64,000 bases of DNA, from contig OZ320313.1 in the NCBI GenBank assembly GCA_976226885.1, positions 74,958,001 through 75,022,000 of the forward strand, in the 5' to 3' direction. Shown here piece by piece: positions 56,537-64,000 of the stretch. The notes under the pieces were generated by a model. It ran no database searches, was not told where the DNA came from, and was given only the letters and a program-made list of their open reading frames with translations. The number at the start of each line of letters is the position of its first letter. The stretch's first letter is position 1. The position numbers were made by a program, and so were the translations under genes. Source of the DNA: Iphione sp. A-MEVVRFRX5 (taxonomy: Eukaryota).

Positions 56537-57470
56537 TAACTACCCATTCTCATATATACCTTGACCCTAATCAACTCGGCAGCACAGAGCAAATCGTGGA
56601 ATAGTGGCAATAAAGCACCTTTTAACACCAAGTCACTGAAAAGTTCTATGTGAACCAAAACTAGGCCCCCCCGATCAAATCGCTTCTTTTTAATGATTTT
56701 GGCGGCATACAAAAATAAATGAAGATATCTTTTCCTAATAGAACTACATTCTATCAAGGCAGTGATCTGTTTCAGATAGCTCAAATTCAAGGCACATAAC
56801 TATGTCTATTAATGGGAAGACTTTTGTTTTATGTCAGTATTTGGATACTTTTTTGAAAATAACTGGCACCACCAGGTAGGCTGTGGATGGAATCAATAAT
56901 TCGTCAATATATATATATATCACTATCTATGATTTTATGATACAAAGACGAAATTCTTACCCCTCCCCCCCAAGTGATAAACCATCAGTATCAATGTATT
57001 CACATTGAAGTGGAACTCACGCACTGGCAGGTTTTGTTGGAATCTCAAGCCGCCTTAGGGCCAGTTTCCATACTTAAATTTTAGGCCAGTTTCTATACTT
57101 AAATTTGTGCATGCGTCTGGTATTGTGTTGTTCATTGACTGAAACAATGCGTTGGAACACAGTGGGTGTTCTTTTATTTGCGTTTGTGTTGCCTTGTATC
57201 GCATTGTTTACTGCCATTTATTACCAATTGCAGTCATTTAACCCATTAAGGGCGGACAATGCCCACAGGCACTCCCCGCATACTCCCGGATAATGCCTGC
57301 AGGCACTCCCCGCATAGTCCCAGATAATGCCTGGAGGCATTATTTAGGCCATATTCTAAGGTTATTGTCATATCTTTGGTAATATTTGATGGATTTTAGT
57401 GATTTTTTGAAGGAATGGGCAGTGAGAGTGTATGAGTTGACTGAGCTGGAGACAGTAACCAAGCGTTGCT

Positions 57471-57602
57471 ATGTACGCTACTCCCTAGGGGATTGCAAGG
57501 TATTACGAGACGCAGACAGACCCGCCACCTGTTGTTTTGGCCTTGAGGCCGCTGCGTGGATATATTTAGCACATAGGTGATCACATTCGTTGCTTCGCTG
57601 TC
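57471..57602 (+). repeat. Split direct repeat A1
   Basis: Matches 61658-61789 with 1 mismatch; contains a TATA-like GATATATTTAG. Confidence 0.95.
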
Positions 57603-57636: not shown

Positions 57637-58614
57637 ATGCCGGACCCCAAGTCAGGTATCACCGAGGAGGAAGGCGAAATTCTGGTCAAAATGCTTGAGA
57701 AGATGAAAGCCATTGAGGACCGTTTGGACAAATTGGACCCCAAGGAGCCCAAGGAGTCCAAGAGTTCCCAAAAGACCAAGAAATCCTCAACCACGACGGT
57801 GACCACCCGGGCTGCCGCGGCCAAAATGGCCGAAGGTCAGTCGACTGCTGTGGCCGGTTCAAGTTTAGACGTACACGAGGACGAGGACAACAATTCGTCA
57901 CCTCCACCTCAACCAGCTGCCTTGAAAACTGAGGCAGCATCCAAGATACAAGAGATTTTCACCCATATGTATCCGGCAGCCCTTGAAACTGTAGGTAAGA
58001 AAATGGCTCGTCCGAATCCCGCCTCCTACATTGTTATGTCAGAGACTGATAAGCCGGACCTGAGAAAATTCACTTTTCCTCAGTATGTGTCCTCCACCAT
58101 GGGTATATTACTTGACCCCTCCATTGTATACCCTGCAGACATTATGACTCTCATCACTCACATAAGAGATACTGCAGAAGAGGTCCAGGCCAGCGGCTGG
58201 GCCCCGGTCAGGGAATGGCTTGTCGAAATTTGGCACCTTACTGGGAACGACAGGCTATCATGGCCAGATGCTCAACGTATCGAATCAATTAAACAACGGT
58301 GTATTAATGCTCATACCAGGGCCAGTCGTGAAGGCTCCACCCTACAGAAAGACTCAGTGGTTCCTTGCCCTGCTTGGTTCAGTGCAAAATGCACCGAGCC
58401 CTCAACCCATGTTGTTAATGACGTGACGTTCTCTCATATATGTCCGTTTTGCTTTCTCCTCCACAATAAGCAGCTCAAACACAAACTGGATCAATGTCGG
58501 TCCAAAAAGAAGGCCCAGCAGCAGAATCTACAAGACCGTCAACAGTCCAAGCCCTGGACAGCGAACCAGCCCAGAGACCAACGACCAGCACGAGCGGACA
58601 ACCAAGAGTGGTGA
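57637..58614 (+). CDS. gag: Gag-like protein with C-terminal Cys/His zinc-finger motifs
   Basis: Intact ORF from ATG 57637; CPAWFSAKC..H and HICPFC..KHKLDQC; first ORF of the element; homologous ORF at 62983. Confidence 0.88.
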   Translation: MPDPKSGITEEEGEILVKMLEKMKAIEDRLDKLDPKEPKESKSSQKTKKSSTTTVTTRAAAAKMAEGQSTAVAGSSLDVHEDEDNNSSPPPQPAALKTEAASKIQEIFTHMYPAALETVGKKMARPNPASYIVMSETDKPDLRKFTFPQYVSSTMGILLDPSIVYPADIMTLITHIRDTAEEVQASGWAPVREWLVEIWHLTGNDRLSWPDAQRIESIKQRCINAHTRASREGSTLQKDSVVPCPAWFSAKCTEPSTHVVNDVTFSHICPFCFLLHNKQLKHKLDQCRSKKKAQQQNLQDRQQSKPWTANQPRDQRPARADNQEW

Positions 58615-60439
58615 TTTCATCCGACTGCCAAGACGATGCAGATTACTTCGATGACTGGGCCGACAACCAAGACTTCCCCACAACTAATGACAATAATTCC
58701 ATTTCCAGATCACACCACCAGATGTTGGCCCATCGAATTTTCAACTGGCCTTTACATACAGCATACCTCCCCTCTGATCTGGCCGATACCTACTCTATAG
58801 TCAAATCCACTGGACTACCCAATTTTATGGAAGCAAGGGTGCTTCTGCAGTCTCAACTTAACCTTAGTAACTGGTCAGATATATTACTGCCATTAGGTGA
58901 TAAAGGTACAATATTCATAGATTTTTTAAAGCATGGCTTTCCACTTGGTTATACTTATGACATGCTGCCCCTCCCCGTGCCGTTGTACCCTACCGATCCC
59001 ACAGACGAAGCCCACATTACTAAATATGTATGTACTGAGCTTGCATGGGGCGCTATCAGGGGCCCGTTTGATCAACATCCATTCACCCATCCACAAGTCC
59101 TCAATCCTATAATGACGAGGCCCAAGAAAGATTCCCATGAGAGGAGAGTAATATTTGATCTCTCACACTCAGGTGTAAATGCTGGCATCCCAAAGAATGA
59201 CTATTATTCAATTCCCCTCAAAGTCACCCTCCCATCCCCATTAGACCTCGCTCATATCATCTCTACCTCCTCACACAAACCATACCTAGCTTCTCTTGAC
59301 CTCAAGCGTGCATATAGATACTTTCCTGTCGACCCCCTTGACTGGCCCCTACTCCCTTTCGTATTTAATCAGAATTTCTATCTGGATCTTTCTCTACCTT
59401 TTGGGACCCGCTACTCCTCTCTCCTCCTTCAAGAACTCTCATCCGTTATTGTCAACCATATCTCATGTAAATTCCCACACGTTACCCTATTTGCATATAC
59501 TTAGACGATTATGTCTTCATCTCACCCTCCTATTCAGAAATTTCCAAAGCCTTTTCCTATGCACAGCTTCTTATCTCAAATTTAGGTCTACAACTGGCAC
59601 ACGACAAGTGTGTCCTCCCCACACGAAACCTAACCTGGCTTGGTGTCACATTTGATACCAACACACATACCATGTCAATCCCTCAACAGAAAATCCAAGA
59701 TCTCATACAATCTATACAAAATATTATTTTCCTCCCTTCAATTCCCCTTAGACAGGCTCAGAGTGTGGTCGGGTTAATCAATCATATAGTAAAGTGTTCC
59801 CCACCTGCCTGCTATTTCATCAACTCCATCCTACATGAGATACGCCAGGCTTCATGTCGCGACTCCTCATCTGTTTCACTTACAGATCCAGTGAAAAGAG
59901 ACTTGAGATGGTTTCTTGTATTTCTCCCCCATTTCAACGGTGTACGCCTCATCACCCCACCAGTAATCAGCGATGTTATATATTGTGATGCCTGCCTTGT
60001 AGGCATGGGGGCATATAACTCAAATCATTACTATACTCAGTCCACCCCCCCCTCCCTAGCTCATCTGCACATCTCTCAGCTGGAGGCGTTCAATACTGCC
60101 GTGGCGATTCATCTCTTCATCGGACCTCACAACCAAAACTCTAGGATTGAAGTAATCTGTGATAATAGTGCCACCATTTCAGTTCTTAGCACAGGCAGAT
60201 CCAAGGATTATTTCTTATCCAGAATTTTAAGAGCAGTCTGGTATCGAGCGGCCAGATTCAATGTTTCCCTGGTTTTTTCTCATCTGCCGGGAGAAAAAAT
60301 GATAACTGCTGATGCCCTCTCACGTCTCCCCACAGCTCCCAAGTACAGGGCAGTTGTTAAGAATTTCATTGCACAACACCCTCATATCATACGTCTTTCA
60401 ATTCCATCATCACTGATATCGCATATCTCTTCATTTTAA
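58494..60439 (+). pseudogene. pol: Reverse transcriptase-RNase H, frameshifted by a 2-bp insertion
   Basis: RPKKDS..RVIFDLS, DLKRAYR, LPFG, then GCA-TA-TAC-TTA-GAC-GAT (YLDD displaced by an extra TA at 59496-59497). Continues WLG..FD into RNase H motifs CDAC, LEA, CDN, ADALSR. Confidence 0.93.
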
Positions 60440-60529
60440 TTCCTTCCAGACCCCCACATCTCGGCGTGGCTTTCCTCTGCGCACCATAGACAGCGACAAT
60501 CAGTCACCCCCCGCACACACTCAAGGAGA

Positions 60530-61540
60530 ATGCAGCAGGCAGCACTAGCCGTGGCATTTTTTCACCATTATGATATGGATATCAAGAATCTTCACGTATA
60601 CCACATCCTTGTCTACATTGAATACCTAGTACACCTAGCCTATACCCCCTCCGTCGTTTCACAGTACATCTCTTCCCTATCATTCATACTACTACAATGT
60701 GATTTCAGCCTATCGGCCATCAATTCACCTAAGGTTTCCAACGCCCTTAAAGCAGTAAGACTAACCTCACAGCACACTCCATCCCAGAAATCCCCTATCA
60801 CAACATCACTCCTACAAAGAATCATTCATTACTGCAATAATCTTGGCCCATTGGGTACCTGCCTGAAAGCCATATTCTCTTTTCTTTACTTTTCCCTTGT
60901 CCGCCAGAGCAACATCTGCGCCAGATCTCTATCATCCTTCGACCCCTTCAAACAGGTAACTAGGGGTGATGTATCCGAGACATCATCAGGTCTGACCCTT
61001 GTCATCAAATGGTCAAAAACCATTAAACAGTCCGAACCTCGCACCATACATCTTCCCCGTTTGGATAATGCCATCTGCCCTGTGGCCCTGTTGCGAAATA
61101 TGTACCAGTTGATTCCCACCACTGACAATATACAGCCCTTATTTACAGACCCAGTCCATAAGGCCCCCTTTGACACTACCAGACTTACTAAGGTCCTGAG
61201 ATCCATCCTATCCCATTTGGGTGAGTGCCCTCGAGCATTTACTCTTCATAGCTTCAGGAGGGGTGGGGCCCAGGCCCTCCAAGAGGCGGATGCCTCAGAT
61301 ATACAGATAATGTCCCAGGGCACCTGGAAGGTACTTCCTTCTTCCATGCACTATACCAGCTCCACCATTGCAAGTAAAAAAGCAGCATCGAAGATGAAAT
61401 CCCTCCTGTCGTCGGCGAAACTAGCCTTTGGCCATATGGCCGTAATCCTCTCTCCCTTGGAGATCATCAGAGTTCATGTATATTCGCTTCTGTCTCTAGA
61501 GACAATATGTATTTTGATGTATTTCGACCTCAAGAGGTAG
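60530..61540 (+). CDS. Tyrosine recombinase (DIRS/Ngaro integrase); frame is open from 60440
   Basis: Catalytic-type motifs SLVRQSN (R), KWSKT (K), HSFRRGGA (H-x-x-R), GTW...HY (W, Y). Confidence 0.88.
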   Translation: MQQAALAVAFFHHYDMDIKNLHVYHILVYIEYLVHLAYTPSVVSQYISSLSFILLQCDFSLSAINSPKVSNALKAVRLTSQHTPSQKSPITTSLLQRIIHYCNNLGPLGTCLKAIFSFLYFSLVRQSNICARSLSSFDPFKQVTRGDVSETSSGLTLVIKWSKTIKQSEPRTIHLPRLDNAICPVALLRNMYQLIPTTDNIQPLFTDPVHKAPFDTTRLTKVLRSILSHLGECPRAFTLHSFRRGGAQALQEADASDIQIMSQGTWKVLPSSMHYTSSTIASKKAASKMKSLLSSAKLAFGHMAVILSPLEIIRVHVYSLLSLETICILMYFDLKR

Positions 61541-61658
61541 CTACAATTGTCTATTATGTTCCCAGAATTAAAAGATTGTCTTTGCCATTGAAACTTTATT
61601 GTATTATTATTTTGTGTTTGTCTTATTGTTATTTTGGGTCGGTTAGTAGTGAGTAATA
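61434..61658 (+). repeat. Split direct repeat B1
   Basis: Matches 61863-62088 with about 2 differences; contains ATTAAA. Confidence 0.95.
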
Positions 61659-61789
61659 TGTACGCTACTCCCTAGGGGATTGCAAGGCATTACGAGACGC
61701 AGACAGACCCGCCACCTGTTGTTTTGGCCTTGAGGCCGCTGCGTGGATATATTTAGCACATAGGTGATCACATTCGTTGCTTCGCTGTC
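61658..61789 (+). repeat. Split direct repeat A2
   Basis: Copy of A1 directly abutting B1. Confidence 0.95.
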
Positions 61790-61862
61790 TATGCCCACCC
61801 CCCCATTATTTCTTGTTGTTTTTTCCTTTTATGTATGCATAGTTTTCATTATTCTTCTTTGT

Positions 61863-62088
61863 ATATGGCCGTAATCCTCTCTCCCTTGGAGATCATCAGA
61901 GTTCATGTATATTCGCTTCTGTCTCTAGAGACAATATGTATTTTGATGTATTTTGACCTCAAGAGGTAGCTACAATTGTCTATTATGTTCCCAGAATTAA
62001 AAGATTGTCTTTGCCATTGAAACTTATATTGTATTATTATTTTGTGTTTGTCTTATTGTTATTTTGGGTCGGTTAGTAGTGAGTAATA
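61863..62088 (+). repeat. Split direct repeat B2
   Basis: Copy of B1, separated from A2 by a 73-bp spacer; forms the element's 3' end. Confidence 0.95.
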
Positions 62089-62214
62089 CGAGAGGATTCC
62101 ATTGGAATGCGTTGTGGTCCGAGCTCATCCATCGCACTGCAGGTGCGTGACTTGAGGAGGGCTAACCTATCGATTGTTGGAAGGAGATCGATATTTTTGG
62201 TGGTGATCGATACA

Positions 62215-62807
62215 ATGGCTGAGGAAAATTGTGATGATGAATTTTCCAGTGGAGAGAGTGAGTGGGAAGACGACTTCCCACTCACTACATTGCTTTTGAT
62301 CGATGGAAGAAAACCAAGGGATAGTGAGAGCAGCTCTGAGGAGGAGGAGGAGAACGACAATAGTGAGGACAAGGCAGAAGAGCCACAAGCAAAGAAGGTA
62401 CCTGAACCAGAGAGAAAATGGGTGAGAATAACCAAGGAGCTCCCCAAAACTCCTCCTGTTGAGGATTTTGATGACAGTGATGTGGGAATCCAACCAGAAG
62501 TAGATCTCCAGAAGACCAGAACAATGCTGGATTTCTTCAGGTTGTTTTTCACGTTTGACTTCGTCAGGCAGCTAACAACTCAAACGAATGCGTATGCCCA
62601 GAGGCAGAGGGAAGCGGACCCCCAGAAGCATAAAAGTCGGTGGCATGAAGTATCTGAAATCCAGATATGTCAATTTGTAGGCCTTTCCATGCTCATGGGT
62701 TTATTGAAGAAACCTAGGATCAAGGACTATTGGTCTAGGATGTACGAGATACTGACACCAATCTTCAGTTGCGTCATGCCTAGGGACCGTTTCGTCCAGA
62801 TTATGAG
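62215..62807 (+). CDS. piggyBac transposase, first coding exon (open)
   Basis: Acidic N-terminus; FFRLFF..QTNAYA; FVGLSMLMGLLKKPRIKDYWS; MPRDRFVQIMR followed by the donor AG|GTAAAA. Confidence 0.85.
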
Positions 62808-62982
62808 GTAAAAATTGCTTGATTTGTTAGCTACTCCCTAGAGGGATCGCATGGTATTACGATTGAAGATATAGAGTCGCCACCTGTTGTGGTTGACCAG
62901 TAGCAAGGTGACCGCTATATTTAGAATATGCATTCGCTGATTTGACTTCGCACGGGTCAGACGTTACTAAGCTGCTACAGTC

Positions 62983-63951
62983 ATGCCGGACCCACAGAAA
63001 GGTATCTCGGAGGAAGACGGTGAGATACTACTCAAAATGCTGGAGAAGATGAAATCTATTGAGGACCGTTTGGAACGCTTGGAACCGACTGAACAGAAGG
63101 AATCCAAGGGGAAATCCAAGAAAAATCCCACTCCAGCCGTCACCACACGGGCTGCCGCGGCCAAAATGGCTGAAGGTCAGTCCACCTCCGCTGCCGGTAC
63201 AAGCACACCCGTTGGTGAAGACAACTCAAGCGACTCACCACCACCACAGCCAGCCGCTCTCAAGTCTGAGGCTGCATCGAAAATTCAAGAAATATTCACC
63301 CACATGTATCCTGCTGCTCTTGAGTCTGTAGGTAAGAAAATGGCACGCCCGAACCCAGTGTCATATGTCGTTCTCTCAGAGACTGATAAGCCAGACCTAA
63401 GGAAAATTTCCTTCCCACAGTACGTTTCTGCTATAATGGGTATGCTGCTTGACCCCTCAATTGTCTATCCAGCTGACATATTAACTCTCGTTAGCCACAT
63501 ACGTGACACTGCAGAGGAGGTCCAAGCTAGCGGATGGACACCGGTTAGGGACTGGCTAGTTGAATTATGGCATCTCACTGGTAACGATAGGTTAACATGG
63601 TCAGATACAGCCAGAATTGAGTCCATTAAGCAGCGCTGCATTAATGCTCATACTAGGAGTACACGAGATGCCCCAAGCCAGCAAAAAGACTCAGTTATCC
63701 CATGCCCTGCATGGTATACAGGCAAATGTAACGAAAACTCTGCCCATTTGGCACACGATATTTCTCTGTCTCACATTTGTCCATTTTGCCTTTTGATTCA
63801 CAATAAACAGCTCGAACACAAATTAGACCAATGCAGGTCAAAGAAGAAGGCCCTCCAACAGAATCAACAAGACCGTCAGCAGCCCAAGCCCTGGTCGAGC
63901 ACACAGCAGAGAGATCAACGCCAGCAGCGCCAGGATCCGCAAGAATGGTGA
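62983..63951 (+). CDS. gag: Gag-like protein of the second Ngaro-type element
   Basis: Intact 322-aa ORF that aligns end to end with the 57637 gag, with the same Cys/His motifs. Confidence 0.88.
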   Translation: MPDPQKGISEEDGEILLKMLEKMKSIEDRLERLEPTEQKESKGKSKKNPTPAVTTRAAAAKMAEGQSTSAAGTSTPVGEDNSSDSPPPQPAALKSEAASKIQEIFTHMYPAALESVGKKMARPNPVSYVVLSETDKPDLRKISFPQYVSAIMGMLLDPSIVYPADILTLVSHIRDTAEEVQASGWTPVRDWLVELWHLTGNDRLTWSDTARIESIKQRCINAHTRSTRDAPSQQKDSVIPCPAWYTGKCNENSAHLAHDISLSHICPFCLLIHNKQLEHKLDQCRSKKKALQQNQQDRQQPKPWSSTQQRDQRQQRQDPQEW

Positions 63952-64000
63952 TACAACACTCGGACGACATCCACGACAGATACGACCTATGGGCTTTCAA
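63831..64000 (+). CDS. pol: Start of pol ORF of element 2 (runs off the window)
   Basis: Open -1 frame MQVKEEGPPTESTRPS...DRYDLWAF, equivalent to MSVQKEGPAAESTRPS...DYFDDWA of element 1. Confidence 0.7.
   Translation, partial: MQVKEEGPPTESTRPSAAQALVEHTAERSTPAAPGSARMVIQHSDDIHDRYDLWAF

Follow-up and report, generated by a model that had tools for sequence, protein, structure and literature searches.

The stretch of DNA analysed here (the window: 64,000 nucleotides of Iphione sp. A-MEVVRFRX5, contig OZ320313.1 of assembly GCA_976226885.1, forward-strand positions 74,958,001 to 75,022,000) contains a complete Ngaro retrotransposon with the order A1-gag-pol-YR-B1-A2-B2, in which A and B are split direct repeats and YR encodes a tyrosine recombinase. 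In the family of this element (family A) and in a more distant one (family B), genomic sequence indicates that both Pol and YR are very probably produced by splicing onto a leader taken from Gag. Both junctions are found in genomic DNA, in frame and bounded exactly by GT and AG, and the splice signals stay the same from one subfamily to the next. How the downstream genes of tyrosine-recombinase retrotransposons are translated has so far been answered by a guess, frameshifting. What is new here is that spliced products for both enzymes are found as intron-less genomic copies, with exact coordinates.

All features of the element lie on the plus strand and are numbered from the first letter of the window. 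The coding part of the shared first exon comprises 119 gag codons and one nucleotide (57637..57994) and is kept in 4/4 intron-less copies. It ends at the donor TAG/GTAAGA (57992..58000), where the exon ends at 57994 and the intron starts at 57995. Intron 1 (57995..58473, 479 nt) runs from this donor to the pol acceptor, a pyrimidine tract followed by AAGCAG/CT (58444..58474) with the exon starting at 58474 in the pol frame. Intron 2 (57995..60449, 2455 nt) runs from the same donor to the YR acceptor, where a pyrimidine tract overlapping the pol stop is followed by TTCCAG/AC (60425..60450) and the exon starts at 60450. The donor and both acceptors are all in phase 1.

A DNA search of the species' own genome (1.18 Gb) gave 53 matches from 40 of 413 candidates scored. 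Family A comprises 70 copies retrieved with a pattern built on the conserved peptide that gag encodes near codon 120, all of which were analysed. Families B, C, and D, whose Gag is 29-45% identical, came to light next to family-A insertions and were sampled at 60 loci; the loci of all four families are samples and not copy numbers. Read from the splice sites, gag, pol, and YR all have uninterrupted frames in 27 of 61 family-A copies.

Four genomic copies lack one intron, three of them joining gag to YR (L025, L031, and L244) and one joining gag to pol (L240). In the three family-A copies the segment is missing exactly when they are set against intron-bearing relatives, and in all four its left end is the codon-120 donor. 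A genome search for the donor exon half followed by any base but G returned three matches, which are L025, L031, and L240. In L025 gag codon 116 is joined straight to the YR acceptor, giving an open Gag-YR frame of 439 aa; compared with the closest relative, the missing segment begins with GTAAG and ends with TTCCAG. The termini of L025 match full-length ones, although only a single B repeat is present and A2-B2 is missing. The same Gag-YR junction occurs in a divergent subfamily in L031, where it is exact against L073 (90% identical, with a 2458-nt intron); this copy is 3'-truncated and flanked by a 56-bp duplication. In the family-B copy L244 the homologous donor runs into YR at the position that aligns with its relatives' acceptors, and its A1 and A2 repeats are 100% identical.

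In L240 the donor is joined to the CAG inside gag that corresponds to window position 58473/58474, in the pol frame. Since this is the same donor, Pol is spliced as well as YR. The resulting fusion is open for 770 aa and consists of 116 Gag residues and Pol (RVT_1, E=3.9e-12), with YLHD as the reverse transcriptase (RT) motif. Downstream, L240 has the intron-bearing YR acceptor, an open YR, and B1-A2-B2, and its A and B repeats are 100% and 99.6% identical, respectively. L240 (G000:C11:55780500-55788500, minus strand) is a complete, young element without intron 1. It can be classed as a non-autonomous type, apparently born from spliced RNA, which has no full Gag but an open Gag-leader/Pol and YR.

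Exon 1 is 69-74% identical among the three family-A junction copies, and on a tree that adds them to 39 representatives they require three separate origins. Among other rearranged copies there are three cleanly mapped deletions (L107, L090, and L095); their ends are unrelated and none lies at the codon-120 donor. One further candidate junction copy, L257, turned out to be an unspliced decayed copy with a TAG acceptor. The junction search in families C and D yielded decayed copies with a mutated donor (L260, L262) or matches of the kind expected by chance.

The donor is under a constraint that the protein does not impose. A-G/G-T-A-A-G is present in 70/70 family-A pattern matches, although the pattern left the third positions of the Val/Ile, Gly, and Lys codons free. 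Synonymous sites were tested in 39 representatives below 95% identity (11 of the 70 copies were removed for gaps between codons -19 and +109, which left 59). At conserved gag codons the mean share of the major third base is 0.53 for fourfold and 0.73 for twofold sites. Invariant third bases occur at only 2/41 fourfold and 2/40 twofold codons, and all four fall at the donor (-2, +2, +5, and +8). In families B-D a GT is found at the homologous Gly in 56/60 loci, mostly as GTAAG (a count by eye, with two rows out of register because of frameshifts), and it persists whether the residue before it is V, K, or R. The site is thus a GT donor with a U1-type consensus, as in U2-type introns.

The acceptors are similarly conserved. 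For YR, 9/70 family-A copies and 22/60 family B-D loci without a YR start were left out. CAG is present in 60 of the 61 remaining family-A copies; the exception, L024, has an insertion of ~550 bp with a short tandem repeat at its start on the acceptor. In families B-D CAG is at the mapped position in 35/38 copies, and in 3 more it is nearby. No AG occurs at -25..-4 of the YR acceptor in 37/37 family-A representatives, compared with 945 of 1369 background segments that contain one. The conservation of this acceptor (60449/60450), which an earlier note on the window had picked out, is therefore beyond chance. The pol acceptor CAG is found in 63/65 aligned family-A and 22/26 family-B copies, and its -30..-9 interval is free of AG in 36/36 family-A representatives. 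The pyrimidine share upstream of family-A acceptors is 0.73-0.75 vs 0.51-0.57. Family A therefore has the YAG acceptor, pyrimidine tract, and AG-free zone of U2-type introns.

A pol-frame stop lies 1-2 codons upstream of the pol acceptor in 38/39 representatives. YR conservation starts at the acceptor (Asp in 37/37), 27 codons ahead of the first Met, which is itself not fixed: it is Leu in 5 family-A copies, and in family B the first Met ranges from codon 4 to codon 214. Neither is the first Met of pol fixed.

One transcript would accordingly give three messengers by alternative splicing. Unspliced RNA would encode Gag (gag open reading frame, ORF, 57637..58614, 325 aa by translation), splicing from codon 120 to the first acceptor would give leader plus Pol (~773 aa in intact relatives), and splicing to the second would give leader plus YR (~442 aa). 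The spliced RNAs would serve as translated messengers, and the Gag:Pol:YR ratio would be set by competition between splice sites. The junction copies would have arisen by reverse transcription of spliced RNAs, with intact elements mobilising them in trans. Such copies can arise in the order DIRS, given that spliced marker RNAs of DIRS-1 retrotranspose according to the part of PMC7192593 available. The proteins would have to be redefined as Gag-leader/Pol (~770 aa) and Gag-leader/YR (~440 aa), which matters for recombinase expression and for element annotation. The model also raises the question of how unspliced replication RNA full of strong splice sites is exported, a problem that retroviruses solve with export elements.

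The earlier note had proposed a different splice, from a donor in gag codon 7 to the YR acceptor, so that YR would carry a leader of 6 residues. The landmarks it named are all present in the sequence: TAA at 60437-60439, TTCCTTCCAG at 60440-60449, CTGAT at 60413-60417, a YR frame open for 90 nt after the stop before the first in-frame ATG at 60530, and TCAG/GTATCA at 57655/57656 (57652..57661), with AAAG/GTATCT in the second Ngaro element of the window. The codon-7 site and the YR acceptor are both phase 1, and GGT is the commonest codon there. Yet among the 66 of 70 copies in which the gag start was found, codon 7 is GGT in 36, GGG in 16, GGC in 8, and GGA in 2, and is not Gly in 4; GT is thus lost in 30/66, and L009, L010, and L012-L014 are among the copies that lack it despite having every frame open. 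A search for the codon-7 junction pattern gave one match, unrelated and attributable to chance, and a search from the acceptor side, with any A/G/T-AG permitted upstream, recovered just L025 and one unspliced copy with a TAG acceptor. Codon 7 lies within the exon in 4/4 junction copies. All four use the codon-120 donor (57994/57995), so the leader is ~119 Gag residues and not 6, and the codon-7 splice almost certainly does not occur as proposed. Splicing from gag to the acceptor at 60449/60450, with removal of gag and pol, was correctly anticipated; the donor was not, and that the same donor also splices Pol went unmentioned. The alignment of genomic copies that the note had suggested as a check bears out the YR acceptor, while the codon-7 donor and the in-frame stop are not general.

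Translational recoding would make the splice sites incidental, with Pol and YR reached by ribosomal frameshifting or stop readthrough. Programmed frameshifting is the view of Poulter and Butler (2015) on YR expression in Ngaro, called 'probable' in the passage quoted in PMC13003380. It draws on real features: over the final 46 codons of gag, pol occupies the -1 frame and is uninterrupted in 35/39 representatives, and in the window copy YR lies in frame behind the pol stop. The earlier note had described YR as continuing the RT-ribonuclease H (RNase H) frame, which is true for the 3' part of pol (59471-60439) but not upstream, where pol is frameshifted at YLDD, and had offered readthrough as the alternative. 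The in-frame arrangement is a subfamily trait. Relative to pol, YR is in frame 0 in 14, +1 in 21, and +2 in 26 of 61 copies, with spacers of 6-11 nt in 58, so no single recoding event fits and neither readthrough nor a pol-YR frameshift can be general. An X-XXY-YYZ slippery heptamer (Y = A or T) is absent from the gag/pol overlap in 39/39 representatives, and recoding leaves the synonymous freeze at the donor and the junction copies unexplained. Overall this explanation is very improbable; it can be dismissed for the YR of each of the four families and for family-A pol, while in families C and D recoding is a possible route to Pol. The junction copies might instead be deletions, made at the DNA level or by RT template switching at the 2-nt AG microhomology, with YR and Pol translated from internal ATGs. 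AG is indeed common to donor and acceptors, as in most introns, the YR codon-28 ATG is common (34/37), and ordinary deletions do happen in the family. However, four independent events share one left end and use two conserved in-frame AG sites, whereas the ends of other deletions are scattered. A random deletion in a 4.3-kb element would have both given ends in ~3 of 10 million cases (hand arithmetic, 3 registers/~9 million end pairs). As the internal ATGs are also not conserved across subfamilies, deletion is left with hardly any probability, and splicing onto the Gag leader is the preferred reading.

Several observations weigh against this splicing model or narrow its reach. The pol acceptor CAG is found in only 1/13 copies in family C and 0/11 in family D, where mostly just an AAG is present one codon upstream. 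In family C a TAG stop lies 13-15 nt upstream of the YR acceptor, hence AG exclusion is not universal, and a decayed family-C copy (L105) has no acceptor AG. Families C and D yielded no junction copy. For L244 the best intron-bearing relative is not close (~68-70% identical), and L244 itself carries one stop. A branch point could not be assigned: CTGAT, which the earlier note had read as a branch site, is kept in 3/36 representatives, and no other site is fixed. The Met present at YR codon 28 in 34/37 family-A representatives is a further concern, and internal initiation there may add to YR output, as a minor contribution. No fused Gag-YR protein was found in a public protein collection, a weak negative since that collection is ORF-called. 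From the junction copies it is certain that splicing of the RNA took place four times or more, but not how frequent it is or whether the products are translated.

The leader is 114-140 aa long across families. It has a predicted helix at 10-31, a basic patch, a nearly invariant Thr-Arg, a disordered linker, and helices at 93-123 that end at the donor. The AlphaFold model of Gag has a mean predicted local distance difference test (pLDDT) score of 65.6; its fold gave no Foldseek match in the PDB, and the best VIA-align Z of 5.2 is not meaningful. A profile search found 832 Gag relatives, and no Pfam family matched Gag. There is perhaps an even chance that the shared leader lets both enzymes co-assemble with Gag through the N-terminal helix and enter the nucleus through the basic patch. 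Speculatively, such a role would match by analogy the job of the Gag-Pol fusion in long terminal repeat (LTR) elements. The Thr-Arg motif recalls arginine-anchor nucleosome binders; a literature search on this link found nothing.

Traces of the same organisation may extend beyond this genome. Of 73 YR relatives from other sources, 32 align near the YR start and 14 of these have residues upstream. In 7/14 a Ser, Thr, Pro, or Ala is followed by a residue with a G-initial codon at offset 0 or +1, as a phase-1 CAG would leave. The background of this pattern is 7.1% per position, which puts the observed number at ~1 in 800 by hand arithmetic with offsets chosen post hoc. Three other relatives have Ile/Leu-Asp at offset 0, and four have the pattern at -4. 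These residues, seen at the protein level without DNA, are a hint of splicing outside the species. None of 138 pattern matches in metagenome contigs was confirmed as a related locus, and the YR profile gave 0 matches to PDB sequences. Whether splicing from one Gag-leader donor to multiple acceptors is the general plan of animal Ngaro elements, replacing frameshifting, is evenly balanced. If it is, the leader would be a packaging and nuclear-targeting tag that loads RT and recombinase into the particle, and annotated Pol and YR proteins would lack their true N-termini. Spliced RNAs would also found non-autonomous, enzyme-only elements spread by the normal cycle.

Ngaro elements (order DIRS) as described in the available portions of PMC3783388, PMC8547959, PMC9210276, and PMC4157794 have the same gag, RT/RNase H, YR order, no methyltransferase, and split repeats A1...B1-A2-B2; no splicing for Pol or YR is proposed in those portions, nor in the accessible parts of PMC6681497, PMC9341512, PMC5718144, and PMC7192593. 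A full-text literature search, with most subscription papers outside its reach, found no report that Pol or YR is made by splicing in Ngaro or DIRS elements. Goodwin and Poulter are said to have mentioned spliceosomal introns in some Ngaro elements in 2004, and a prior description is possible.

The earlier note had likened YR expression to that of retroviral env. Foamy viruses, in which pol and env are spliced from one donor, are a closer parallel than env alone. According to the sections of PMC3705302 available, foamy Pol is made from a spliced mRNA with a donor common with env and an acceptor inside gag. That mRNA, as described there, contains no Gag sequence and has its own start, whereas the enzymes of the window element keep ~119 Gag residues. 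The third gene of the window element encodes a recombinase, and the element has neither env nor a protease or DDE integrase. The element works like a foamy virus but is not a member, its L240 relative having Gag residues fused to Pol. In the BARE Ty1-copia element, as far as the available part of PMC3735527 goes, splicing inside the retrotransposon RNA also sets protein ratios. There spliced RNA yields Gag and the unspliced frame holds pol; the window element is the reverse, with both enzymes needing splicing. DIRS-1 of Dictyostelium is likewise a YR retrotransposon whose proteins act in trans. It differs in its inverted repeats and internal complementary region, overlapping ORFs, and methyltransferase, and natural splicing is not mentioned in the portion of PMC7192593 available.

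Assignment of the window element to Ngaro follows from its parts. Repeat A1 forms the left end (57470..57602) and is 99% identical to A2 (61657..61789). B1 (61434..61658) and B2 (61863..62088, the right end) were delimited by repeat comparison within the window. Genes for gag, RT/RNase H, and YR follow in order on one strand. The Pol exon (58474..60439) encodes RT and RNase H without a methyltransferase; in this copy it is in two pieces, frameshifted at YLDD, with a weak match to PF00078 in Pfam and RNase H motifs recognised from translation. Pol ends ~40 residues past the last RNase H motif, with no methylase family matched in Pfam. The YR exon (60450..61540) has the motifs VRQSN, KWSKT, HSFRRG, GTW, and HY and matches Phage_integrase (PF00589, E=3.5e-6). 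No inverted repeats of at least 40 nt (0 in the window) or methylase matches were found, so the element is neither DIRS-like nor PAT-like. The YR frame of the window copy runs ~40 codons past the stop of its relatives (363 vs 323 codons), into repeat B1 (61420-61540). The spacer between A2 and B2 (61790-61862) is strongly pyrimidine-rich and contains an AG.

Some copies deviate at the right end. L025/L241 (C19:31858683-31860425) and L107 (C15:71620196-71623385) end after a single B repeat, without A2-B2, and in L244 A2 is apparently present and B2 absent. Recombination of B1 by B2 or a shorter RNA could explain these right ends.

A second Ngaro element, ~70% identical, begins near 62850 on the plus strand; its 5' part (62850..64000) is in the window, and it runs on past it (L021). 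It has the same donor (63331/63332) and the same pol acceptor (63810/63811). Element termini are uniform among the copies compared, yet L021 and L031 have flanking repeats of 18 bp and 56 bp, respectively. The 18-bp direct repeat lies at window 62804-62821 and at L021:6095-6112. Target duplications of such length are unexpected for recombinase integration. Between the two elements lies a piggyBac-like transposase fragment (62083-62811; PF13843, E=2.7e-18), whose frame ends where the second element begins.

Besides the two adjoining elements of the window, family-A elements lie inside or beside distant Ngaro elements at L003/L103, L016/L104/L105, and L063. This nesting may reflect target preference. 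At G000:C22:62319084-62341978, four near-identical family-B elements are arranged in tandem with a spacing of ~7.5 kb. Elsewhere in the window, a 256-aa open frame at 42332-43102 matches DUF7869 (PF25273, E=3.3e-15) and is probably a piece of another mobile element.

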